53,461 nt of DNA, from UHGV virus genome UHGV-0032033. One strand, 5' to 3'. Source of the DNA: a virus. The notes beneath the pieces were generated by a model. That model was not told the DNA's origin. It worked only from the letters and a program-made list of their open reading frames with translations, and did not search any database. This document shows, in pieces, positions 992-52,526 of the stretch. The translations under genes were made by a program, and so were the position numbers. Each line of letters starts with the position of its first letter. Positions within the stretch are counted from its first letter, which is position 1.

Positions 992-3900
992 ATGAGTAGC
1001 GGCGGCGGCAAAGCAAAAACACCAACTTTAATTAACGATAATCTATATCACAAACAGTTTTATCGTGTACTCGACATTATTTCAGAAGGTCCGATTTATG
1101 GTCCTGTGAATACAAAAGCGCCATTAAACAGCGTTATGCTTAATGACACCCCTGTAACTGACGCGAACGGCAATACCAGCATCCCCGGTATTAGCGTAGC
1201 GTGGCGCAATGGTACGATAGATCAATCACCGATTAACGGTTTTAACGCCATTGAATCAACCGTTATTGTTAACGCACAGGTTAAACACGATACACCAATA
1301 ATCAGGACCGTTTCCGATCCTAACGTAAACCGCGTTCGCCTGAATATCGGCGTCGATTCACTTGTACAATCTGACGAGCAAAGCAATCAACATAACACAT
1401 CGGTTATGATGATGATTGACGTGAAGCCTTCGTCTTCTTCTACGTGGACGCTTGTTAAAGACGTTACTATAGGTCCAGGTAAGATCAGCGGAGAATATCT
1501 TGAAGCGCATATTATCAATGCACCAGATGAAAAACCGTTTGATATTCGCGTTCGCCGTGTAACCGCTGATAGCACAAGCGATCTGTTGCAGAATGATACG
1601 CGATGGAGTAGCTACAGCGAAATAATCGACGATAATTTGTCTTATCCTCACACCGCTGTAGCTGGCGCGGTAATTGACCATGATCAGTACGCTGACACGC
1701 CTACCCGCACCTATCACCTTCGCGGGCTGATTGTTGATATTCCTGATAACTACGACCCGGAAAAGCGCACTTATTCCGGTTTGTGGCTTGGCGGCTTCAA
1801 ACAGGCGTACACCAATAACCCAGCATGGATCTTCCGCTATCTGGTTAAAAACGAGCGTTTCGGCCTTGCTCGTCACGCTGGCTATATTGACGTTGACGAC
1901 GGCGCATTATATACGCTCTCCCGATACTGCGACCAGTTGGTTGATGATGGTTACGGTGGCCTTGAGCCTCGTATGACGCTTAATGCTTACATTACTGAGC
2001 AGATGAGCGCCCGCGACTTACTGGACAATATCGCCGGGATGTTCCGGGGCATCGCGTTATGGGACGGACAACGCCTCACCGTGATGATTGATGCACCACA
2101 AGACCCGATCGCCACCATTACAAACGCAAATGTCGTTGATGGGGCGTTCACTCGATCGAGTATCTCACGCGCAGAATGCTACAACGCCGTGATCGTATCC
2201 TGGACTGACCCTGAAAACGGATGGGAACAATCAAAAGAGTATGTGGCAGATGATGAGCTAATCGCCCGTGATGGTTATAACGAAACCACGCTGGAGGCGT
2301 TCGGGTGCACTTCACGCGGGCAAGCGCACCGCGCTGGTAAATGGCTGATAGAAACAGCAAAACGCGAGCCGTCAAAATTCACGTTTAAAATGGCCCGTGA
2401 TGCGATTCACTTTACGCCAGGGGATATAATCGAGATCCTCGACAATAACCGCGCAGGCGCGCGTTTAGGCGGTCGTATCGTGGCGAACAATGGGAAAGTG
2501 ATAACGGTCGATAAGGTCGATTCAGAATACATTGCAGCAGGCGACACCATCAGTTTACTTGATGGCGATGGCAAATTTAAAAAACATCAGATCACTGGTG
2601 TTAACTGGAACAAAATCACACTGGCAGCAGCCCCGGCATGGATTCGGAACGGTACTGTTTTTGCTGTATCAACCGAATCAGCAAAACCCGTTTTATGTCG
2701 AATCATCAGCGTAGCAGAAACTGAAAACAACAGCGTGTACACCATCGAAGCCGCGCAACATGACCCGAACAAACAAGCAGTAGTCGATGAAGGCGCGATA
2801 TTTGAAATCAACAACGACACGCTTAATCACTTCCGCGTTCCGAATATTGAAAATCTGAAGGTGGTAAACATTGGATCTGAAACGGTTCAATGCCGCGCAA
2901 CATGGGAGACACAGACAACAACACATCGCATGACCTTTGAGATCCGCATATATAACGCCGATGGTGCGGTGGTTAAAAGCTACGAAACAACGAAGTACAG
3001 TTATGATTTTTATGGCATTGACGCTGGAGCGTATTCGTTAGGCGTTCGCGGAAGAAATGATACTGGCATGAAGGGCGCTGAAAGTATTGTTGATCTTGTT
3101 ATCGGTGCGCCAGCATCGCCAATAGGCGTTAACTGGGTTCCAGGTGTATTTCAGGCTACAGTGTACCCGATAAGCAAGACAACGCTAACAACTGATACAG
3201 CGTATGAATTCTACTATGCAGGGGAAAACCAGATTACGGATCCTGCAAAAATAACCACGTCTGCGCAGTTTACCGGGCGCGGGTATCAGTGGACGTTTGG
3301 CGGCATGAATACAGGCCACACTTATTACGTTTATGTGCGCACGCGTAACGCTTTTGGCGTGTCTGACTTTGTGGAAGCATCAGGTAAGCCGACAGAAAAT
3401 TTTGATGAAATTAGCGATTACGTCACCAAAGACGTGATGAATTCAGAACAATTTAAGGGAATGGTAAGTGATATTAAGGATCTTGGTGATCGCACTGATA
3501 TTATAGAAAGCGCAACTGCCGACCTTAAAACAGCTACAGACGGCCTTAAAGCTGATACAGATACACTTAAAAAAGATACCGAAGACCTTTATAAAAAAGT
3601 CGAAGAAAACGCCGATGAAATAGGCAAACATGCGGTAAGAATAGACTCATTAGAGGTATCAGACGAAAACGTTAATAACGAACTGGCACAGACAAAAGCA
3701 AGTCTACAAAACGCTTCGCTAGCTCTGATCAACAACTCACTTGCTCAAACTAACACGCGCGTTACTCTTACCGCTCAATATAAAAAAGGGCGCAACGAAA
3801 CGAAAGCGCAGATTGACCGCATAGACAACGTTATCGCAGATGAGAAAAAAGCGACAGCGGAATCACTGGAAACCATTACAGCAGAAATGAACGCAATGGA

Positions 3901-5402: not shown

Positions 5403-5426
5403 AACCCCGCCACGGCGGGGTTTATA
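5403..5426 (+). terminator. rho-independent terminator after J
   Basis: GC hairpin ccccgcc-acg-gcgggg followed by TTTAT, a few nt after J stop. Confidence 0.6.
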
Positions 5427-5506
5427 CATATAGTAAACACATATTCGTCTGCGTAATGATAAAACGTTAAAATAGTATGGTTAATTAACATAATGGAGTC
5501 ATTGCG

Positions 5507-7589: not shown

Positions 7590-7620
7590 CGAAACGAGGC
7601 TAACGCCTCGTTTCTTTTTG
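7590..7620 (+). terminator. rho-independent terminator closing the tail fibre operon
   Basis: hairpin aaacgaggc-taac-gcctcgttt followed by CTTTTTG. Confidence 0.7.
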
Positions 7621-7860
7621 TGTACCATTGTGTGTACCATATTGTTTTAAGGTTAAATCAAATATGAATAAAACAATGATTTATATATCATTTTTACAAA
7701 TTTGCATAATGTCTCTTTCTAATGCTACATGCCACGCACAAGCGTAAACATACGCACGCAAAATCACACCTAACGCCATGAATTTAGCCGATTTACTGGT
7801 TTTCGCTGTAAACAAGCGCGCTTTTGCGTTATATTGCGTAAACCATGATTTGTGTACCAT
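7620..7860. promoter_or_regulatory. int-proximal region with three GTGTACCAT direct repeats (putative Int arm-type sites / attP region)
   Basis: GTGTACCAT at ~7620, ~7632 and ~7852, flanking the AT-rich stretch upstream of int; attP core cannot be defined without host sequence. Confidence 0.35.
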
Positions 7861-7886
7861 GTTGTGCACCAAATAAGGGGGCAATT

Positions 7887-9107
7887 ATGGCGTTATCAGA
7901 TACTAAATTAAGAAGCATCCACGGTAAAAATTATGATGGCCCGGTCGAGATCCCGGATGGCGGAGGTCTGTCAGTAAGGGTAAGTCCGAAAGGCGTCATT
8001 GCGTTTCAGTATCGATACAGGTATGGCGGGAAGCCTAAAAGGATGAAGCTAGGCAACTATGGCGTAATGACGCTCAAGGAAGCCAGGCTAGCGGTAATTG
8101 AGTGCAAGGCGATATTGGCAGACGGCAAAGATCCCGGACTTGCTAAGAAACAGCGCATTGACGAGGCGATGGCGAGAGCAACCGTTAGCGATATCGTGAA
8201 CAACTATCTTAATAAACAGACGACCAGGGAAATTAAGGGATACAAAGAGATCAAGCAAAACTTACAAAAGCACATAATCAAGAGGTATGGCGATTTTATT
8301 GTGGATGATATTAACGCGAGGGCGTGGGAGGCAATATTCTCAGAGATAACGAAAGCGGGCCATCCGGTGCAGGCTGGCGCGATGTTACGCCGCATGAAAT
8401 CTATTGTCGCTATGGCGCAAAGGAAAGGGATAGTAAAAGACAACGAGATCCGCTTGTTGCGAGTGGAAGACGTTGGCAAACCGCCGCGCAAGATCGACAG
8501 ATATTTATCGGGCGAGGAAGTAGGGGAATTCTGGCGTTTTACGGCTGGCGATTTTATGTCTAAGGCCAATATGACATTCTTCAGACTACTGCTATTAACA
8601 GGATGCAGGACGGTAGAATTGAGGCTAGCAAAGCGTGAACATTTTGATCTCAATCACAGGGTATGGAATATCCCTGCGGAACTATCAAAAAACAAAAAGC
8701 GGTTTACGCGCGGCCTGTCAACGTTAAGCGTAGAGCTATTAAGCATGATGTTTGATTGCCACGGCTTCAACATAGTTTTCCCTGCGGTATTGTCGCTGGA
8801 TGGTAAACCAATGGATAAAGCTGTGTGCACAAGACTAGCGACAAGGCTTAGTAATGAAATTGGATTTAAGGCGGGTTTTACTGCGCATGATTTGCGCCGG
8901 ACGTGCCGCACGCATTTAGCGGCATTAGGCGTGACCGCCCAGGTAGCCGAAAAAATGTTGGGCCATACCCTGGGCGGAGTATTAGGAGTTTATGACAGAT
9001 ATGATTATGTAGAAGAACAGAAAGACGCTGCGGAATTATGGGCTAATTACGTTTTATCAGTATCAGAAAGCAAGCCTACTGACTTAAAGAACTGCATTAC
9101 ATCTTGA
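7887..9107 (+). CDS. int: tyrosine integrase (P4-like, with N-terminal arm-binding domain)
   Basis: RBS aaggggg; N-terminal LSDTKLRS...GLSVRVSPKGVIAFQYRYRYGGKPKRMKLG motif, C-terminal catalytic region with HDLRRT and LGH...VYDRY. Confidence 0.85.
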   Translation: MALSDTKLRSIHGKNYDGPVEIPDGGGLSVRVSPKGVIAFQYRYRYGGKPKRMKLGNYGVMTLKEARLAVIECKAILADGKDPGLAKKQRIDEAMARATVSDIVNNYLNKQTTREIKGYKEIKQNLQKHIIKRYGDFIVDDINARAWEAIFSEITKAGHPVQAGAMLRRMKSIVAMAQRKGIVKDNEIRLLRVEDVGKPPRKIDRYLSGEEVGEFWRFTAGDFMSKANMTFFRLLLLTGCRTVELRLAKREHFDLNHRVWNIPAELSKNKKRFTRGLSTLSVELLSMMFDCHGFNIVFPAVLSLDGKPMDKAVCTRLATRLSNEIGFKAGFTAHDLRRTCRTHLAALGVTAQVAEKMLGHTLGGVLGVYDRYDYVEEQKDAAELWANYVLSVSESKPTDLKNCITS

Positions 9108-9280: not shown

Positions 9281-9933
9281 TTATCCCCAGTATATTTAGT
9301 TAGCGGGATATCCCCATTAATAATAGATTTTGCCATATCGCGATAATCACGCGAATAATCATTATCAACTCTGAAATTAATCTCAATTGCCGCATCAAAT
9401 CCAATAACCTTAACCGCCAATGCAAACGCGATTTCAGCTACCGCCTTTTCTTTCGGATCAATATACAATTTATGGGCAAAATGCCGCCATTCCCCGGCTT
9501 GTTCAAAATCAGACGTATCCTTTTCTACAAAAAGAGCAAGACGATCGCTTATATATTTGTATTTCAAAACAGGATATCCCGTTACCCGACCATTAACAGG
9601 ATCGAGAAGTTCAAGCCACACGCCGCACGGCGGCTTTTCTCCAGGTTTCCATTCCGTAACTTCCGGCGCATCGCAATCATGCCGCTCATCTTCGATTAAT
9701 TCATCAATAATCTCGCTTTCTTTATTCATGCCGTCATCATCCGTTTCAGAGTAACGCACAAAGCGCCACGTATTAGCCATCACCGTATAAGATTCACCGC
9801 CTACCTTAGATCCGGCGTAATACTCCGTCCCGAAATCGTAATAACTTAAAAACGTGGTTACTTCAAAAGACGGGATGTCATCACGGAAGCGGTGAACTAT
9901 TTTACCTATTGCAAAATGGGTTTTCTTCGTCAT
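9277..9933 (-). CDS. hypothetical protein (218 aa)
   Basis: ORF at distal end of leftward early operon, start coupled to upstream small ORF; no motif recognised. Confidence 0.5.
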   Translation of the reverse strand: MTKKTHFAIGKIVHRFRDDIPSFEVTTFLSYYDFGTEYYAGSKVGGESYTVMANTWRFVRYSETDDDGMNKESEIIDELIEDERHDCDAPEVTEWKPGEKPPCGVWLELLDPVNGRVTGYPVLKYKYISDRLALFVEKDTSDFEQAGEWRHFAHKLYIDPKEKAVAEIAFALAVKVIGFDAAIEINFRVDNDYSRDYRDMAKSIINGDIPLTKYTGDK

Positions 9934-13007: not shown

Positions 13008-13025
13008 TATGGTATAGCCTCCGGT

Positions 13026-14144
13026 TTACAAAATGGAATATTCAGGGTAATAAACAAAGCGCCCGATCTCCCCATAATCAGGACTGTAAATTATTACCGC
13101 AGCCAGACGCCGCGACCGCCAGCCGCCATTCGTTGAATAAGCGTCTTTGCCCGCTAACGTGCCGTGATGTTCTACGATCCCTAACGATGTTTCTACAACA
13201 GACTGGTGATGAAGATGGCCCGTATGAGCGTAAACCGCCGCCGACTTGCCGAAATCCTCCCGCCAGTCAGAGATGCAGGCAGCTAACAAATTTTCGGGTT
13301 TTTTGATAGTGTGACCGTGATGATAGGCAAGGAATGTTTTGCCGTACTGTGTGTGGTGGACGATAGCAGGGGACACGTCAACCGTCACGCGCGGTTCATC
13401 TTCGTAAAAAGCAGCCAGCGCCGCACGTAGCCAAATCATCCCTGATTGATCATGATTTCCGCTAAGCACCTGGATCTCGACATCCTTATGATTTAGCAAC
13501 ATCTTCCCGACAGCACGCCGGACCGACCGGATCGCCACGTAAACAAGTTTTGCGTAGCGTGAATCACAATCCAAAACGTGATTACTTGATGGCGTCACTG
13601 GTAACAGTCCGTCAGTGTGGAGCACATCCCCGCCTAACAGCAAAACAGCTTTTTCAGACATCGGTGCAGCGCCTACCGCGTAGTCGAAGAAATCATTTAG
13701 CACGCGCTCAGCGATCCCAGTGTCGTAGCTCTCGCCGCATTCTGCCTTGTGAGCAAGCGCCCCGATATGCAGATCAAATACCGGATAAAGGGCCAGGCTT
13801 TTTTGGAAATCAATTTCCGGCACTGGCACGGCCTCCGCGCGGGGTATTTCTTCCGTGAATGCATCACAAGCCGATTGCATTAGCCTTTCCATTTCATCGC
13901 GATCACGGGCTGTTTTAATCCAGCGCATAATCACATTGCCATCCTTATCGACGAGCAATGACTCACCATTGACGCCAAAACCCGGCGCGCGACGCGTGGA
14001 TATTAAACCGCGTTTCGCCAACCGTGCGCCCAGGCGTTCGACGTTGCGTTTTGCCATGCCATATTTTTCTGCTATTTGCTTGTAAGTTTTCCCCTTGTTG
14101 TACTCAGCGATCAGTTCCTCATCGCTGATCTTTCTTTGTGACAT
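13026..14144 (-). CDS. HTH domain fused to calcineurin-like metallophosphoesterase
   Basis: N-terminal HTH (TYKQIAEKYGMAKRNVERLGARLAKRGLI); C-terminal phosphoesterase motifs DLHIG, GGDVLHTD, LSGNHD, HTGHLHH; occupies helicase-loader position between initiator and DnaB. Confidence 0.6.
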   Translation of the reverse strand: MSQRKISDEELIAEYNKGKTYKQIAEKYGMAKRNVERLGARLAKRGLISTRRAPGFGVNGESLLVDKDGNVIMRWIKTARDRDEMERLMQSACDAFTEEIPRAEAVPVPEIDFQKSLALYPVFDLHIGALAHKAECGESYDTGIAERVLNDFFDYAVGAAPMSEKAVLLLGGDVLHTDGLLPVTPSSNHVLDCDSRYAKLVYVAIRSVRRAVGKMLLNHKDVEIQVLSGNHDQSGMIWLRAALAAFYEDEPRVTVDVSPAIVHHTQYGKTFLAYHHGHTIKKPENLLAACISDWREDFGKSAAVYAHTGHLHHQSVVETSLGIVEHHGTLAGKDAYSTNGGWRSRRLAAVIIYSPDYGEIGRFVYYPEYSIL

Positions 14145-14537
14145 AACGTTACTTCCTCATGTTTACAGAATGTATATTTATTTTCCGTAAAACGCGCTAC
14201 AACGCAAAATTCCACCGCGTAACCCACTTGTAAGGGTGCAGTGTCTTTTTTGCGCCAGAGGCGCTATCAGGTGGCTAATTTTTGATTTACAGACTGGTAG
14301 GTAGGTTATGGATTAACGAGAAGGTACAAGCCGCCGAACAAAGCGACGTTAACAGCGATTGCCGCAGCGATGGCAAGCCAGGGCGAAAACGTGTTTACCG
14401 TCCATTTTAAAATCCTCTCTGTAACGCTCTATAACGAGCTAATCGCAAAAAGGTAAGAAGTGTAGCACCATATGCGATTTAGCTCGCTGGTGAGGTTGTT
14501 TTGTGGGTAATTTTGGATTTTTGCGGATCGTGGTTGG

Positions 14538-15566
14538 TCAAAGAACGCCAGCGCGTGTATCACGTAGCGTTTTTGGTTTAAGCAGGAAATCAAGTGTCGC
14601 AGTAAAGCCATTGCCGAAGTAAAAATCTGAAGCCGTGTTTTTGAACGTTTCGAAGTAGGCGACAAAGCCGTTAATGCTTTTGTCTTTCAGGTAGTCAGTG
14701 AACGCATAGATCTTGCGTTCAAGATCCCGATCCAGTTCGGCAGGTGGTAACAGGCCGTCGAATGTCTGGTTAAATGCTGATACCACGACAGCAGAGTTAA
14801 CCGTAGCTGTAACTCTTCGCCATTGTTCAGCCTTTGCCAGATATTCATCAAAGCGGTTTACCCTTGCGATCTTTATCGGTTCAGGTTTAAACGACCACGT
14901 TTCCGCTATCCAGTCGATAACCATGATCAGATCTTCTTCAGTGTATGCACTGCGTGTTTTTGTCTCCTTCAGCAGCTTGATAAAGTATTTTTTCTCCTTA
15001 TGTTTGCTATTAAACTTGTTGTTATAGTGATCGAGTACGCGCGACGCTGCCAAATCAGCCGCCTGATCTTCTTCGCTGATAGGCCCGTCTTTTTCCAATA
15101 CACGGAGTGTATTGTTTTTAATGTTCTCTTTACTGGTTATATATGACTGATTAGGGTGTCTCTCTGACACCACCCCCGGTGTCACAGTGACACTACCCTG
15201 GTGTCTCTCTGACACTACCCCCGGTGTCACAGTGACACTACCCTGGTGTCTCTCTGACACTACCCCCGGTGTCACAGTGACACTACCCTGCAATGATGGC
15301 AAGACGATGACATAGAAATTACTTGTTTGCTCTTTTCCTCCTATTAGATAACGAGGTTGTTTAATTAATAACCCTTTCTCACAAAGAGCATCAATAGCCC
15401 GCATAGCTGTACTTTTACCTATTTCGCATTGCTTCGCTATGTGCTGGTAAGAAGGGTAACATTCGCCGTTATCGTTAGCGTTATCAGCCAACTTTAACAG
15501 CACCAGTTTGTGCATTGGGTTTCCGACCTCAGTATGGAATACCTCGACCATTAGCCGCATACTCAT
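14538..15566 (-). CDS. replication initiation protein (lambda O-like architecture) containing the iteron origin
   Basis: N-terminal HTH domain (KLVLLKLADNANDNGECYPSYQHIAKQCEIGKSTAMRAIDALCEKGLLIK); central linker encoded by 3 x 45-bp iterons (GSVTVTPGVVSERHQ x3). Confidence 0.65.
   Translation of the reverse strand: MSMRLMVEVFHTEVGNPMHKLVLLKLADNANDNGECYPSYQHIAKQCEIGKSTAMRAIDALCEKGLLIKQPRYLIGGKEQTSNFYVIVLPSLQGSVTVTPGVVSERHQGSVTVTPGVVSERHQGSVTVTPGVVSERHPNQSYITSKENIKNNTLRVLEKDGPISEEDQAADLAASRVLDHYNNKFNSKHKEKKYFIKLLKETKTRSAYTEEDLIMVIDWIAETWSFKPEPIKIARVNRFDEYLAKAEQWRRVTATVNSAVVVSAFNQTFDGLLPPAELDRDLERKIYAFTDYLKDKSINGFVAYFETFKNTASDFYFGNGFTATLDFLLKPKTLRDTRAGVL
15155..15289. repeat. origin iterons: three tandem 45-bp repeats, each with two GGTGTC-N4/5-GACAC palindromes
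   Basis: ggtgtctctctgacac(t/c)acccccggtgtcacagtgacactaccct repeated 3x within initiator ORF, adjacent AT-rich stretch at ~15121-15150. Confidence 0.8.
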
Positions 15567-15587: not shown

Positions 15588-15833
15588 CTAGAACATCAAC
15601 TGATAAACACAGAAGAAACCAGGTAGCTTGCTGATAAGACCATTTCTTTCAAGTTGATGCAGCGCAGAAACAGCATCGTGTAACGTAATTTCACACATTA
15701 CAGAGATCTCTTCCGGTGTGACTTCGCTTTTGCCGTTACATCCAGCCTTTGTTGCCAGCGCAATTAAGATGAGTTTTTGCGCCGGATCATTGTTATTCAG
15801 GCGAATATCAAAAGCCTTGCGCACGTAATACAT
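15588..15833 (-). CDS. small HTH protein, first gene of leftward early operon (Cro/cII position); paralogous to initiator N-domain
   Basis: RBS aggagaaaagaat-ATG; 81 aa from internal Met of track ORF; KLILIALATKAGCNGKSEVTPEEISVMCEITLHDAVSALHQLERNGLISK mirrors initiator N-terminus. Confidence 0.45.
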   Translation of the reverse strand: MYYVRKAFDIRLNNNDPAQKLILIALATKAGCNGKSEVTPEEISVMCEITLHDAVSALHQLERNGLISKLPGFFCVYQLMF

Positions 15834-15911: not shown

Positions 15912-16138
15912 CAGATCCCGCCGTTGCGTGATATTTGTTTTTCGCTTCGCAGCGACACCGGATTTTTAAAGAGCTTAAGGTAAGTGCCTTTTTGTGCCTT
16001 CCGTTATCTTTTTCCTTGCGTCTTTGCAAGTATGGCCTTACCTTGTCTGCAAGTTTACAAAATGGAATTTTAAGATCAAGGCTTAAAATACACGTTTTGT
16101 GACTTGCATCAAACTTTTTGAGGTTATAGGGTAGCGAC
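15912..16138. promoter_or_regulatory. divergent immunity-region control region (cI promoter / leftward early promoter, operators)
   Basis: Intergenic between divergent cI and early operon; palindromes CTTGCgtctttGCAAG (~16015-16030) and CTTGtctgCAAG (~16042-16053); 16-mer GTTTACAAAATGGAAT at ~16053; cI ATG lacks SD (leaderless-like). Confidence 0.5.
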
Positions 16139-16786
16139 ATGAAAACAAAATGGTATGACTTAGCAAAGCAGCTCATGCGGGCGCAGGGCATGAGTCAGGA
16201 TTCACTCGCAGATCTCATGGGGATAACTAAAGGCGGCCTGTCACACTGGCTGAATGGTCGCCGCGAGCCTAATCTTGAAGATATTGCGCGGATTATGCGG
16301 GCGCTTGGTCGTCGGCAGTTTACTGTTACACATGACGGCATGGTCATTGATGATTCTGTTTCTAATACACTTCAGGCCGCGCCGCCGCGTGATTTAGGTA
16401 GTTACCCGGTTATTGACTGGAAGGACACAGTAAACAATATGGATGACACAAGGCGATCAGCATTACCACACGTTACGACTAGCGTTATTTGTTCAGATGA
16501 TAGTTACTGGCTGGTTGCCAAAGGTGAATCAATGAACGCGCCGCAGGGGTTGAGCATCCCTGCTGGGACGATGATACTTGTAGACCCGCACGCGCCAGCT
16601 ATTGACGGCAAACTGGTTATAGCCCAGCTTGAGGAAGGGCAGATACCGACGTTTAAACAGTTGATTATTGATGGAGGTCAAAGGCTTTTACGTTCGCTCA
16701 ATCCGCTGTATCCGCCAATCCCTATGAATCCAGAATCAAAAATTATAGGCGTGGTGGTTGATGCGAAGATCGTAAACCTGCCATAA
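16139..16786 (+). CDS. cI: cI-like repressor (XRE HTH + S24/LexA-type autopeptidase)
   Basis: N-terminal HTH (SQDSLADLMGITKGGLSHWLNGRREP), C-terminal S24 motifs (VAKGESMNAP, IPTFKQLIIDGG); divergent from early operon. Confidence 0.85.
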   Translation: MKTKWYDLAKQLMRAQGMSQDSLADLMGITKGGLSHWLNGRREPNLEDIARIMRALGRRQFTVTHDGMVIDDSVSNTLQAAPPRDLGSYPVIDWKDTVNNMDDTRRSALPHVTTSVICSDDSYWLVAKGESMNAPQGLSIPAGTMILVDPHAPAIDGKLVIAQLEEGQIPTFKQLIIDGGQRLLRSLNPLYPPIPMNPESKIIGVVVDAKIVNLP

Positions 16787-16818: not shown

Positions 16819-16909
16819 CCGGAAAACACCAAAACGTAAACAGAAAACGTTATTTATTGTTTAAATATCAATAGCATATAAAATATTTTAAAAAGGTATA
16901 CAAAATGGA

Positions 16910-16938
16910 TTGACTCGATGTTTTACGGGGCGTATATT
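16910..16938 (+). promoter_or_regulatory. near-consensus sigma70 promoter for rightward early operon (pL-equivalent)
   Basis: TTGACT - 17 nt - TATATT; preceded by motif AGGTATACAAAATGG; followed by ~340-nt leader before first ORF. Confidence 0.6.
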
Positions 16939-17285
16939 GCGAGTCAAAGGAAGGGCGCAGGTAACAAAAGCAACTTCCTGGCACTTTAAAAATCAGGCTT
17001 AACACCTTGTCAACCGTGGAGTAACTCCCCGATGAGGGACTGAAAGCGGCACTGATAACAAGGCGCATGGGGTGTTTAAAGCGTTACATCCCCCACGAAA
17101 CCGCACGCAAGGCGACGAGTCAGCTTGCTTGGAGTGAGCAAGGTCACGCCGGGAACGGCGATGATTGCGGGATTAGTTGAAAGATGTTAGGCCGCTCATT
17201 AACAATCTGGTCAGCCGCTGGAAGTGCGGCAATTAACGAAGATGATTTTTATTAAGTTTCATCAAGGATATACGGAGATCAGATT

Positions 17286-17576
17286 ATGAGCGTTACAATT
17301 ATGTATGGCAAATGTGACAGTAAACTGAATGCCAGGGAACGCAGAAGGATAAAAAGAGAAAACGAAAGAAAATCATCACCTGCAATCAATAAAACAGACA
17401 ATGTGGATAAAGCTATTCGATTTGCAAACGAGGAAAGATGCAAACCAAATAGCATTAAAGAACGTCGCAAAGGATCAGTAAAATGGTATACGGAAAATGA
17501 AAGCGGCAACTACTACCACGCAACGCAACCACGCCATTTAGGGGAAAAACCCCTGGATAAAGTCCGCTACCATTAA
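17286..17576 (+). CDS. hypothetical basic protein (96 aa)
   Basis: RBS ggag; Arg/Lys-rich (ARERRRIKRENERK); first ORF of rightward early operon. Confidence 0.45.
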   Translation: MSVTIMYGKCDSKLNARERRRIKRENERKSSPAINKTDNVDKAIRFANEERCKPNSIKERRKGSVKWYTENESGNYYHATQPRHLGEKPLDKVRYH

Positions 17577-17606
17577 TACAAAATGTAAACATCCGGAGGT
17601 GACATT

Positions 17607-21007: not shown

Positions 21008-21106
21008 CAGAGTAATTCCGATCACATAAATATACATTTTGTATTGTGATTGCATATCCGTTTTGTAAGCCGAAATCAAAAGGTTTACGGTGCGGAGGAA
21101 GCAAAA

Positions 21107-23824: not shown

Positions 23825-24585
23825 GCGGGCTTAGAAATTGGGTTATCTGGTCGCTGTATGACGGCAGCGGGTACGCCGTTAAAGATTGGGCGGACGCTGG
23901 TTATAAATGTTATTGCTTCAACTATGACGGCGCTAATCACGGGGATTATGACGGGGTAAAAATAATTCATCCAAATATTGAATATGTCAATGTCTGGATT
24001 GACAGCCATTTCCTGGTAATGTTCTCCCCTGAATTGTCTGTTTATCCAGATCCTGACATTATCCTGGCCTTTCCGCCATGCGACCATCTCGCCGTGTCAG
24101 GCGCTCGTTGGTTTGCCAGCAAGCGTGAAAAAGATCCTGATTTTCAGGTGAAAGCGGCATACAACGCAAAACTGGTAGAAACGCTGGCTGATATGTATCA
24201 CGTCCCGTGGATGGTGGAAAATCCGGTAGGCGCACTGTCAACGTTATGGCGTAAACCGGATTTCATCTTCAATCCGTGCGCTTACGGTGGCTACCTGCCG
24301 GAAGATGATGAACATCCCGCTTTCCCGGAATACATAGCCGCCCGCGACGCTTACACGAAGAAAACATGTATCTGGTGCGGGAATGGATTTAAGCAGCCGC
24401 TATTCCGGCCTGTACCGATGCCGGATGAATGGGAAAACAGCAAACAGTACGCGAAATTGGGCGGGAAGTCGAAACGCACTAAGATGATCCGCTCACTAAC
24501 GCCGCGCGGCTTTGCCCGTGCTGTATTCATGGCTAACGACCGGGCCATCACTCGTACTACGCTTAACCGCGTTTTACCGGACTAA
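23821..24585 (+). CDS. compact DNA cytosine-C5 methyltransferase-like protein (254 aa)
   Basis: Motif I-like IWSLYDGSGYA, PC motif ILAFPPCDHLAVSGARW, ENV-like WMVENPVGAL, C-terminal TPRGFARAVFMAND; much shorter than canonical C5-MTases. Confidence 0.5.
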   Translation: MSGLRNWVIWSLYDGSGYAVKDWADAGYKCYCFNYDGANHGDYDGVKIIHPNIEYVNVWIDSHFLVMFSPELSVYPDPDIILAFPPCDHLAVSGARWFASKREKDPDFQVKAAYNAKLVETLADMYHVPWMVENPVGALSTLWRKPDFIFNPCAYGGYLPEDDEHPAFPEYIAARDAYTKKTCIWCGNGFKQPLFRPVPMPDEWENSKQYAKLGGKSKRTKMIRSLTPRGFARAVFMANDRAITRTTLNRVLPD

Positions 24586-24744
24586 AGTTTACAAAATGGC
24601 GTCATTGCGTGATGCGGATCACATAATGGCGCTTTTTGCCTTGTTTGGGGGTATCCATTTTGTATACTTCAAGCAAACAAAATGCTCTTTAAAAATCCGG
24701 CAGCGCTGAAATGCGTAGAAATCACCTGAAAAGGAGAGAGCATT

Positions 24745-30707: not shown

Positions 30708-30804
30708 TGTGATCTGCATCACGAGGTATACAAAATGGCATTGTTTTGGCAGTGCCATTTTGTTATAAAGAGGCTGAAGAGAGAACGATACGGAGGGTAG
30801 AAAA

Positions 30805-47112: not shown

Positions 47113-47414
47113 AATTAACCCCTGTAATTATTCTGATTTGCTAAATGCTTCCTTTAACTTAGTTATACACGCATATTGTTTATTTTTTAAGTGCTTTTAA
47201 CATTTCTTCGATAAGGTCCGCATAGCGTTCATATTCGTTGGGACGGTAGTTTACGTTTCTCATTTTCTTATCCTCTTTCACTTCCTCCGGGACATCCGGC
47301 CTTCCTGCATCTCTTCTATCTTTCTCTACATCATCTATACAAAACGGCATCGTTAAAATAAAGACATTTTGTATAAAATAGATACATAGATCACATTTTG
47401 CATGAGGTTAAATC

Positions 47415-50799: not shown

Positions 50800-50969
50800 T
50801 TTTGGGCCTCACTTGCTGGTACCGCTTTTCTTCTTGCTTCCTGTATACAGCTTGTTGCTTCATGTGTGAATCCATATTGTAAACTAGCTATAATTCTTGT
50901 GACGAATATCTCATTTTTCGCGTAGAAGCGCGTAAAGATATATACAAAATGTAACTTACAGGAGGGGGT

Positions 50970-52397: not shown

Positions 52398-52526
52398 AAC
52401 ACACCTCCGCGCCATTTTGTTAACTGTGCTTCCGTTTGAGTAAAATATACATATTGTAAAAACCGCGATCAATCCATTTTGGTATGATTTAGCGTGACTT
52501 AGATCACAAAATGACAAGGTGAGAAA

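Follow-up and report, generated by a model that had tools for sequence, protein, structure and literature searches.

A short motif with TACAAAATG at its core recurs throughout the 53,461-bp stretch of viral DNA that was analysed here, which we call the window, and it corresponds to the half that is conserved in a pseudo-palindrome of 17 bp and of the TAC-N5-GTA type, GTWTACA-AAA-TGKMnnn. Comparison of the sequences makes it probable that this 17-bp element is the operator to which dimers of Rep, the lambda-cI-like repressor of this phage, would bind, and that such operators are dispersed genome-wide, which for this type of repressor is unusual.

The phage and the recurrence of the motif

The window is from a temperate siphophage of the mEpimmI group (mEp021-like), the relatives of which are mEp021, mEp010, mEp013, mEp044, mEp515, mEp554, and MagusPhagus and about 35 E. 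coli prophages. The gene order is as in mEp021: the left end has the tail genes K, I, and J, and after them come the integrase gene and the leftward replication operon. To the right of rep (16139-16786, + strand) are the N-like gene for Gp17 (17286-17576) and a long rightward operon with Q, lysis, head, and tail genes, and the tail region is interrupted by three clusters of reverse-strand genes. BoxA-like nut sequences (GCTCTTTAAAAATCCGG) were found at 15958-15974 (- strand), 16981-16997 (+), and 24684-24700 (+), and they match the arrangement of nutL, nutR1, and nutR2 published for the group (PMC11893012). A strong sigma-70 promoter, TTGACT-17-TATATT (16910-16938), is directed at nutR1 and the N-like gene; the preliminary description of this DNA had called it pL-like, but with nutR1 downstream of it, it is the rightward early promoter. 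No HTH_3 Cro-like gene could be recognised in the window. The first leftward gene, which is gp14-like, was considered as Cro and rejected because it has no match to an HTH family and is similar to the N-terminal part of a replication initiator.

When both strands of the window were searched, 10 exact copies of the 9-mer TACAAAATG were found compared to 0.94 expected, on the + strand at 13027, 16056, 16899, 17577, 24590, 30729, and 50943 and on the - strand at 21035, 24656, and 47365, and the highest count in 100 shuffles that preserved the dinucleotides was 3. The preliminary description had put the number of copies at 8 or more against about 0.4 expected by chance; the recurrence is confirmed and the expectation has to be raised to about 0.9. 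The 10-mer TACAAAATGG, which is the top over-represented 10-mer of the window, gave 20 matches with up to one mismatch compared to 5.6 expected. A position weight matrix (PWM) gave 26 sites of at least 12 bits compared to 2.8 in second-order Markov simulations, a count that is not independent of the k-mer test as the matrix was trained on the motif sites themselves. In the complete genomes of the family there were 26 to 29 sites of at least 12 bits each. By inspection, 19 to 21 of the 26 sites in the window are intergenic, the gene context being judged from lists of open reading frames and from annotated relatives, and only about 9% of the window is non-coding.

The longer shared strings that had been pointed out earlier are also present, GTTTACAAAATGGAAT at 13024 and 16053, AGGTATACAAAATGG at 16894 and 30724, and AGTTTACAAAATGG at 24586, and the pairings of near-copies were found within a few bases of where they had been placed (30729/30755 and 47338/47364 inverted, 21034/21058 direct). 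The near-copies between 52411 and 52516 are AACAAAATGG at 52412 (-), TACAATATGT at 52449 (-), ACCAAAATGG at 52474 (-), and a weak CACAAAATGA at 52505 (+). When the orthologous 13-mers of mEp021, MagusPhagus, and mEp013 were compared, they were 94.3% identical compared to 86.6% in the flanks of 40 nt on either side (Fisher p=5e-10), which is a conservative comparison because many of the flanks are coding.

Anatomy and location of the sites

In the aligned sites the information spans from 3 bases upstream of the core to 1 or 2 bases downstream of it, with GTWTACAAAATGG(A/C) as the resulting pattern. Sites with T at core position 10 run on as TGTAAAC or TGTATAT and thereby form a 17-bp dyad, GTWTACA-AAA-TGTAWAC. 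The best example is the near-perfect 17-mer TAATACAAAATGTAAAC (17574-17590, +), which fits the dyad (GTWTACAAAATGTAWAC) at 15 of 17 positions; it lies right behind the N-like gene's stop codon, ahead of the next ribosome binding site (RBS), and its 13-mer is identical in the three relatives. Another palindromic-type site, GTTTACAGAATGTATAT (14161-14177, +), is found in the leftward operon, in the gap that spans 14145-14537, and its orthologues read GTTTAC-AGAAT-GT, GTTTAC-GTTTT-GT, and GTTTAC-ATTTT-GT. Thus, at this site the outer bases are fixed and the central five are free, which is the pattern expected of an HTH dimer. Most of the sites in the window are only half-symmetric and TGG is preferred over TGT.

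In 8 of 21 sites TATA is found 24 (+/-1) nt past the core, and at other offsets it occurs only once, at 33. This offset places the centres of neighbouring sites 24 to 25 bp apart, and besides the early promoter such paired centres are at 21038/21062, 30734/30759, 47343/47368, 50876/50851, and 52478/52453. Since the outer half GTATA is itself -10-like, operator pairs and promoters are inseparable by sequence alone. The preliminary description had argued for a protein-binding site at the DNA level, and we agree; an RNA-level element was rejected. The sites of the two operons are of mixed orientation, those at 13027 and 14164 in the leftward one being on the + strand and those at 21034 and 21058 in the rightward one on the - strand, and they belong to a pseudo-palindromic 17-mer. 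The RNA folding of the pair at 47338 is weak (-5.4 kcal/mol, z=-2.3). Strong RNA folding is confined to the 30729/30755 pair and to the 24582-24672 region that holds the 24590/24655 pair, and with only these two loci folding strongly, a hairpin is no general property of the motif.

At the early promoter, the strong putative operator GTATACAAAATGGATTG (16896-16912, +) abuts the -35 hexamer TTGACT and its centre is at about -41. The core TACAAAATG and TTGACT are invariant in all 27 distinct variants of the 16896-16938 stretch and the promoter spacer varies; within this operator the variation is limited to core position 10 and the next base, which changed from GA to TG in 3 of the 27 variants. 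A weak second site of the TAC-N5-GTA type, TTTTACGGGGCGTATAT (16921-16937, +), lies 25 bp from the strong one in the spacer and -10 of the promoter with its centre at about -16; it is below the PWM threshold and was identified by eye. An inverted repeat at this promoter, TTGACTCG-N22-CGAGTCAA, was also considered as the true operator and was rejected because its right arm varies without compensation among the variants.

Upstream of rep, in the divergent region, there are two further sites. The first, GTTTACAAAATGGAATT (16053-16069, +, 27 bits), overlaps a candidate leftward -10 (TAAACT) and is at about -76 from the putative rep promoter; among 24 variants it changes chiefly at core position 5 (A, G or T). 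The second, TCACAAAACGT (16088-16104, -), is inverted and diverged, it reads ACATTTTGTGA in the relatives, and it is at about -41 from the candidate rep promoter. With their centres at 16061 and 16096, the two sites are contained in a 61-bp imperfect palindrome (16048-16108), and both overlap candidate leftward promoters that read into nutL. The candidate rep promoter is weak, with TATAGG at 16125-16130, and its transcript would start about 2 nt ahead of the rep ATG (16139) and be near-leaderless.

The remaining sites are dispersed over the genome. In the leftward operon, a single site of 25.8 bits (13024-13040, +) follows a stop codon and precedes the RBS from which the DnaB-like helicase would be translated, and its 13-mer is identical in mEp021, MagusPhagus, and mEp013 though the upstream gene of mEp021 is different. 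In a gap of the early right operon, a direct pair with centres 24 bp apart (21030-21070, -; cores at 21034 and 21058) has TATATT at the -10 offset and the pair is kept in the relatives. From the cytosine methylase gene to nutR2 there is a cluster of 3 to 4 sites (24587-24689), at 24590 (+), 24620 (+), 24655 (-), and a weak one at 24676 (+); TATACT comes after the 24655 site, and the nutR2 boxA begins at 24684. This region has strong RNA folding (z=-5.8) and a terminator is predicted there in mEp021. An inverted pair of the form 10-N16-10 with centres 25 bp apart (30726-30767) coincides with an RNA hairpin of -20.6 kcal/mol; it is present in MagusPhagus, but no orthologue of the region was aligned from mEp021 or mEp013.

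In the tail region, a second inverted 10-N16-10 pair (47335-47376), which is the exact palindrome TACAAAATGG-N16-CCATTTTGTA, is in the divergent region that has a reverse-strand gene (47180-47350) on one side and the gene for the tape measure protein (47415) on the other. Two sites, 50872 (-) and 50943 (+), are in the divergent region (50868-50956) that separates the M-like tail gene from a reverse-strand cluster, and the 50872 site overlaps a leftward promoter-like GTCACA-16-TACAAT as well as the spacer of a rightward TATAAT (50889-50894). The sites at 52474, 52449, and 52412 (all -), which with the weak one at 52505 (+) span 52408-52518, are on a candidate leftward promoter, TTGATC-17-TATATT at 52472-52444, which the promoter scan reported independently and relative to which the centres of the three - strand sites are at about -41, -16, and +21. 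This candidate promoter faces the reverse cluster 52397-51623, the last gene of which has a KilAC/ANT antirepressor-type domain, and the sites are conserved in the three relatives. In all, the paired layout recurs at five loci beyond the early promoter, and these include every divergent region beside the reverse-strand clusters of the tail operon, where copies of the motif had been placed earlier. Several sites, at 13027, 17577, 50943, and 52412, touch an RBS. A possible palindromic-type site after the J gene, GTTTACTATATGTATAA (5422-5438, -), is a weak member of the set at 10.5 bits and no aligned orthologue of it was found among the three relatives.

Rep as the proposed binder, and the alternatives

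Rep has an N-terminal HTH_3 domain (E=5e-13) and a C-terminal Peptidase_S24 domain (E=4e-19), and it is homologous to lambda cI (3bdn) over residues 15-208, that is in both domains, with E=1e-19. It is 91-100% identical among 44 IMG/VR contigs of the group, and its recognition helix is identical in every family Rep found, the IMG/VR searches with Rep and with the N-like protein having returned homoimmune relatives only. The repressor of mEp021, Rep021, has been shown to give immunity to all six phages tested, and its operators were left undefined (PMC11893012).

What points to Rep as the binder is that the same type of site was found beside the genes of Rep homologues, 38-55% identical, in six further contexts, five of which are unrelated prophages. 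The closest of these contexts is a phage of the same architecture (L115-L118) in which Rep is 55% identical overall and the recognition helix, GITKGGLSHWLNGRREPN, is identical. The first leftward gene of this phage is HTH_3 Cro-like and unrelated to that of the window, and the motif is retained, with 18 PWM sites in 20 kb; the inverted site upstream of rep has the same position and layout in L115 as in the window. In these loci the same operator pair precedes a replaceable slot, which holds Rha/ANT in L115, no gene in L116, and a 152-aa gene in L117 and L118, and this is consistent with the own promoters of the inserted genes coming under Rep control.

The unrelated prophages, with Rep homologues that are 38-51% identical, are from Citrobacter, Enterobacter, Serratia, Tatumella, and Vibrio, to which two IMG/VR contigs are added, and they have sites of the GTATACA.../TACAAAATGG type in the cro-rep gap and just 3' of rep. 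In Citrobacter, ATACAAAATGGA is in the cro-rep gap, and CCGTTTTGTA-TTGACG and then AATACGTTATGTATT are directly downstream of rep. In Enterobacter, GTATACATTTTGTATTGCGC-N-GATACGTTTTGTATATT is downstream of rep, with its two sites 25 bp apart, around the -35 and over TATATT; the pair with centres at -41 and -16 that is seen at the early promoter of the window is thus found downstream of rep here and also in Serratia. The Serratia and Tatumella prophages and the two IMG/VR contigs have three GTATACA...GTAT sites in each cro-rep gap, the third overlapping a TATAAT located 6-7 nt upstream of the rep start codon, and the layout of the inverted site upstream of rep recurs in Serratia. The Vibrio prophage has TATTACAYAATGGA sites. 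When the PWM was applied at a threshold of 11 bits, both of the two matches in 20.7 kb of one Citrobacter locus (L119) and both of the two matches in 10.9 kb of the Enterobacter locus were beside rep, and matches beside rep were also obtained in Serratia and Vibrio; in Tatumella no match was above the threshold and the sites are visible by eye. Across genera, the proteins with TKGAVSHW and TQGGLGHW as recognition helices have GTATACA...GTAT sites and the Vibrio protein with SQSGIAHW has TATTACAYAATGGA sites, and these few cases are no more than suggestive of a site that changes with the helix. The Citrobacter prophage has two sites only, both beside rep, and therefore the dispersal is a trait of the phage family and not of the repressor family.

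Among the candidates that had been put forward before, a cI-like repressor with dispersed operators is thus supported by the like sites beside Rep homologues in unrelated prophages. The second candidate, an 82-aa moron HTH protein, turned out to have a KilAC/ANT antirepressor-type domain and is no recognisable DNA binder, and the third, a late-gene regulator, is not needed, with the sites flanking rep and the early promoters. It is unlikely that a phage protein other than Rep, be it a small regulator of the Cro or another type or the KilAC-like protein of the moron, binds the sites. Cro proteins normally share operators with their repressor, and in the unrelated prophages an HTH_3 Cro-like gene is opposite rep and so co-occurs with the sites; a Cro-type protein, where it is present in those prophages, would be expected to share them. 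However, the window has the motif and no such gene, and the motif is the same in L115 where the first leftward gene is of another kind. No gene for the 82-aa protein was called in the flanks that were sequenced at the other-genus loci, and this protein cannot account for the motif in those phages and prophages that have Rep alone in common. Rep is the sole gene common to the window and all the contexts that were examined.

An improbable explanation is that the motif is a promoter element which host RNA polymerase itself reads with no dedicated repressor involved, either as a UP-like A-tract upstream of the -35 or, in its reverse complement, with CCATTTTG as spacer and TAWACY as -10. At three of the sites a -35-like hexamer comes 1 nt past the core and TATAxx is 17 bp further on, and the reverse complement yields the -10-like hexamers TAAACT and TATACT, for example before nutR2. 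However, a fixed TATA offset is found in no more than the 8 of 21 sites mentioned above, many of the putative -10s are without the conserved final T, the orientation to the genes is mixed, and the sites that touch an RBS leave no room for a transcript. The second form of this explanation is attractive at 16056, 24655, and 47364, but at 13027 it runs into the RBS and at 16899, 17577, 24590, and 30729 such promoters would fire antisense, and it was rejected. Moreover, the motif tracks Rep homologues in unrelated prophages and the promoter scan showed no overall enrichment of promoter-like matches in the window.

That the motif is the site of a host factor such as CRP, IHF or TyrR is very improbable. 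CRP-like palindromes (TGTGA-N6-TCACA) are more frequent than expected, 7 compared to 1.4, five of them are in the same intergenic cassettes as the motif, and some weak copies of the motif overlap a TCACA half-site. When compared by eye, the motif core fits none of the CRP, IHF, LexA, DnaA, TyrR, and CytR consensus sequences, and the sites follow Rep homologues from Escherichia to Vibrio. In addition, when the 2.9 million viral contigs of IMG/VR were searched for the exact pair TACAAAATGG-N16-CCATTTTGTA, it was present in 18, with the N16 spacer in all of them, and at least 16 of the 18 also carry the Rep of the group; a pair that is nearly confined to contigs of this phage group disfavours a host factor. 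Finally, repeats at module boundaries that serve recombination and the exchange of morons, as in the T4-type promoter-stem-loop cassettes, would account for sites that flank the variable gene slots of L115-L118 and the reverse-strand clusters of the tail region, but they leave the fixed geometry at rep and the early promoter and the 25-bp pairs unexplained, the sites are also beside Rep homologues in prophages without such slots, and there is thus hardly any likelihood that recombination is more than, at most, a secondary consequence.

Predicted regulation by Rep and comparison with known systems

If Rep is the binder, the sites around rep would make up a lambda-like switch. Two sites at the rightward early promoter would flank its -35 and cover its -10, and the two at about -41 and -76 of the near-leaderless rep promoter would overlap the candidate leftward promoter. 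At pairs 24-25 bp apart, which is a cI-type cooperative spacing, Rep dimers may bind cooperatively, and the paired promoter-operator cassettes would then be those of the early right operon, the region before nutR2, the 30.7-kb locus, and the three divergent regions of the tail operon. In a lysogen, one repressor would in this way silence many scattered sigma-70 promoters, including the one for the antirepressor-like gene. The single sites before an RBS (13027, 17577, 50943, and 52412) may block read-through or anchor DNA loops. The -41 position is the activating position at lambda PRM, and at the cassettes that have a strong -41 site only, Rep could activate rather than repress.

The full scheme to which this leads is a tentative one, and we regard it as possible but rather doubtful in its entirety. 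In this scheme, Rep would be a cI-type genome-wide silencer with about 25 operators that combines lambda-style cooperativity with P1/L5-style dispersal; it would shut the early promoters, the scattered sigma-70 promoters of the tail operon, and the antirepressor-like operon, the palindromic double operators (10-N16-10) would be shared by overlapping divergent promoters, the single sites before an RBS would block elongation or anchor multi-site loops, and at some of the -41-only cassettes Rep would activate genes of the lysogen.

The likeness to lambda is in several features. In lambda the operators have one well-conserved half, OR2 is at about -41 of the near-leaderless PRM, and there are six operators in two clusters. 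Rep is homologous to lambda cI over both domains, its putative operators are likewise 17-bp pseudo-palindromes with one good half, neighbours are spaced by 24-25 bp, the repressor gene has sites on both of its sides that are about 840 bp apart, and one of them is at about -41 of the near-leaderless candidate rep promoter, the position that OR2 has at PRM. Unlike in lambda, there are about 20-25 sites, they are genome-wide and occur in the late region as well, the operators have an unrelated sequence, rep is oriented as the N-like operon, and the window has no recognisable Cro gene.

With regard to dispersal, the closest likeness is to other repressors. P1 is a plasmid prophage without N/Q antitermination, and the operators of its C1 repressor, some of them single and some paired, govern a large number of separate operons. 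For C1, 22 dispersed 17-bp operators have been described (PMC8546580). Both systems have one immunity repressor and about 20 scattered 17-bp operators, but C1 is no cI/S24 protein and its operator, ATTGCTCTAATAAATTT, is asymmetric and has a sequence unrelated to the one proposed here. The repressor of mycobacteriophage L5 and cluster A has more than 20 short sites, the stoperators, genome-wide, in promoters and short intergenic gaps (PMC9283540), and several of the single sites in the window are also in short gaps before an RBS. The L5 repressor, however, is a monomer on an asymmetric 13-mer the orientation of which follows transcription, whereas the sites described here are pseudo-palindromic and of mixed orientation. 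Thus, the system is not a member of the P1 C1 or the L5 family, and the repressors of those families are unrelated proteins.

In the literature that could be searched no description of an operator of the mEpimmI group was found, and TACAAAATGG together with 'operator' gave no relevant paper. Dispersed operators of an immunity repressor are a known kind of system, and what is new here is their probable presence in the mEpimmI phages, a coliphage family that was delimited only recently and is common in the human gut. For these phages the analysis provides a specific proposed operator sequence and places about 20-25 candidate sites on the genome, with predicted Rep-controlled promoters at set coordinates that include those of the reverse-strand clusters in the tail operon and of the antirepressor-like gene. 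If Rep binds these sites, the group would provide a tractable E. coli case of a cI-type repressor with dispersed operators, in which roadblocking, looping, and the control of moron genes would be open to lambda-style genetics.

CRP-like palindromes and RNA folding at the proposed operator cassettes

When the window was examined for TGTGA-N6-TCACA palindromes with at most one mismatch, seven were observed compared to 1.4 expected, namely at 16098-16113, 24608-24623, 30708-30723, 50898-50913 and 52493-52508, and also at 8643 and 19402. Five of the seven share intergenic cassettes with operators, the proposed 17-bp sites of the cI-like repressor Rep, and in two cases the centre of the palindrome is some 60 bp upstream of a predicted start (24675 and 30776), which is a class-I CRP position.

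The operator pair 30729/30755 (30721-30772) is also a strong RNA hairpin with a folding energy of -20.6 kcal/mol (z=-5.9), and the operator cluster at 24.6 kb (24582-24672) folds with its two outer motifs paired with each other (z=-5.8). In the annotation of the related phage mEp021 there is a terminator at the place equivalent to this cluster. The two structures, at 30721-30772 and 24582-24672, may represent terminators that lie within operator pairs.

The immunity region and nut sites

In rep and its homologues a -10 sequence, either TATAGG or TATAAT, lies 6-8 nt upstream of the ATG and there is no RBS, as seen at 16125-16141 in the window, at about 2990-3003 in the IMG/VR contig L051, at about 1185-1203 in the Serratia prophage L122 and at 9989-10003 in L115, a phage locus of the same architecture. 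The mRNAs from which these proteins are translated seem to be leaderless or near-leaderless, like that of lambda cI expressed from PRM. No recognisable Cro was found in the window. The first leftward gene (15588-15833, minus strand) is similar to the N-terminal part of a replication initiator (PHROG 4617). In the L115-type phages, which otherwise resemble the window, the equivalent place (9649-9876, minus strand, in L115) is occupied by an HTH_3 Cro-like gene.

A boxA-like sequence, GCTCTTTAAAAATCCGG / GCACTTTAAAAATCAGG, occurs in three copies (15958-15974, minus strand; 16981-16997 and 24684-24700, plus strand) which agree with the published positions of nutL, nutR1 and nutR2 of mEp021 (PMC11893012). 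Because an operator and a TATACT immediately precede nutR2, this site may have its own promoter under Rep control.

Replication gene and other repeats

Within the replication-initiator gene (14538-15566; HTH_36/DnaD_N domains), GGTAGTGTCA is repeated five times with a period of 22-23 bp (15188-15287, minus strand). These repeats look like origin iterons, which in lambda likewise lie inside the O gene. The 8-mer CTGATAAA or its complement is present 20 times in the window compared to about 2.2 expected, dispersed and chiefly in coding sequence (e.g. 15580, 15600, 41536 and 41602). Three minus-strand copies of ATGGTACACA at 7619, 7631 and 7851 (7619-7640 and 7851-7866) lie just upstream of the integrase gene and at its start, and are possible attP or integrase arm-type sites.

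A replaceable gene slot and a possible tail-region promoter

In L115-L118, the same-architecture loci, the replication gene is followed by a slot whose gene is replaceable, and two operator copies 39 bp apart always precede this slot (8530-8620 in L115 and equivalents in the others). A Rha/ANT antirepressor gene occupies it in L115 and a 152-aa gene in L117 and L118, and in L116 it is empty. In the window, a perfect rightward TATAAT (50889-50894) is located in the divergent region upstream of the M-like tail gene and its spacer side is overlapped by the operator at 50872, and this TATAAT hints that the late operon contains a sigma-70 promoter.
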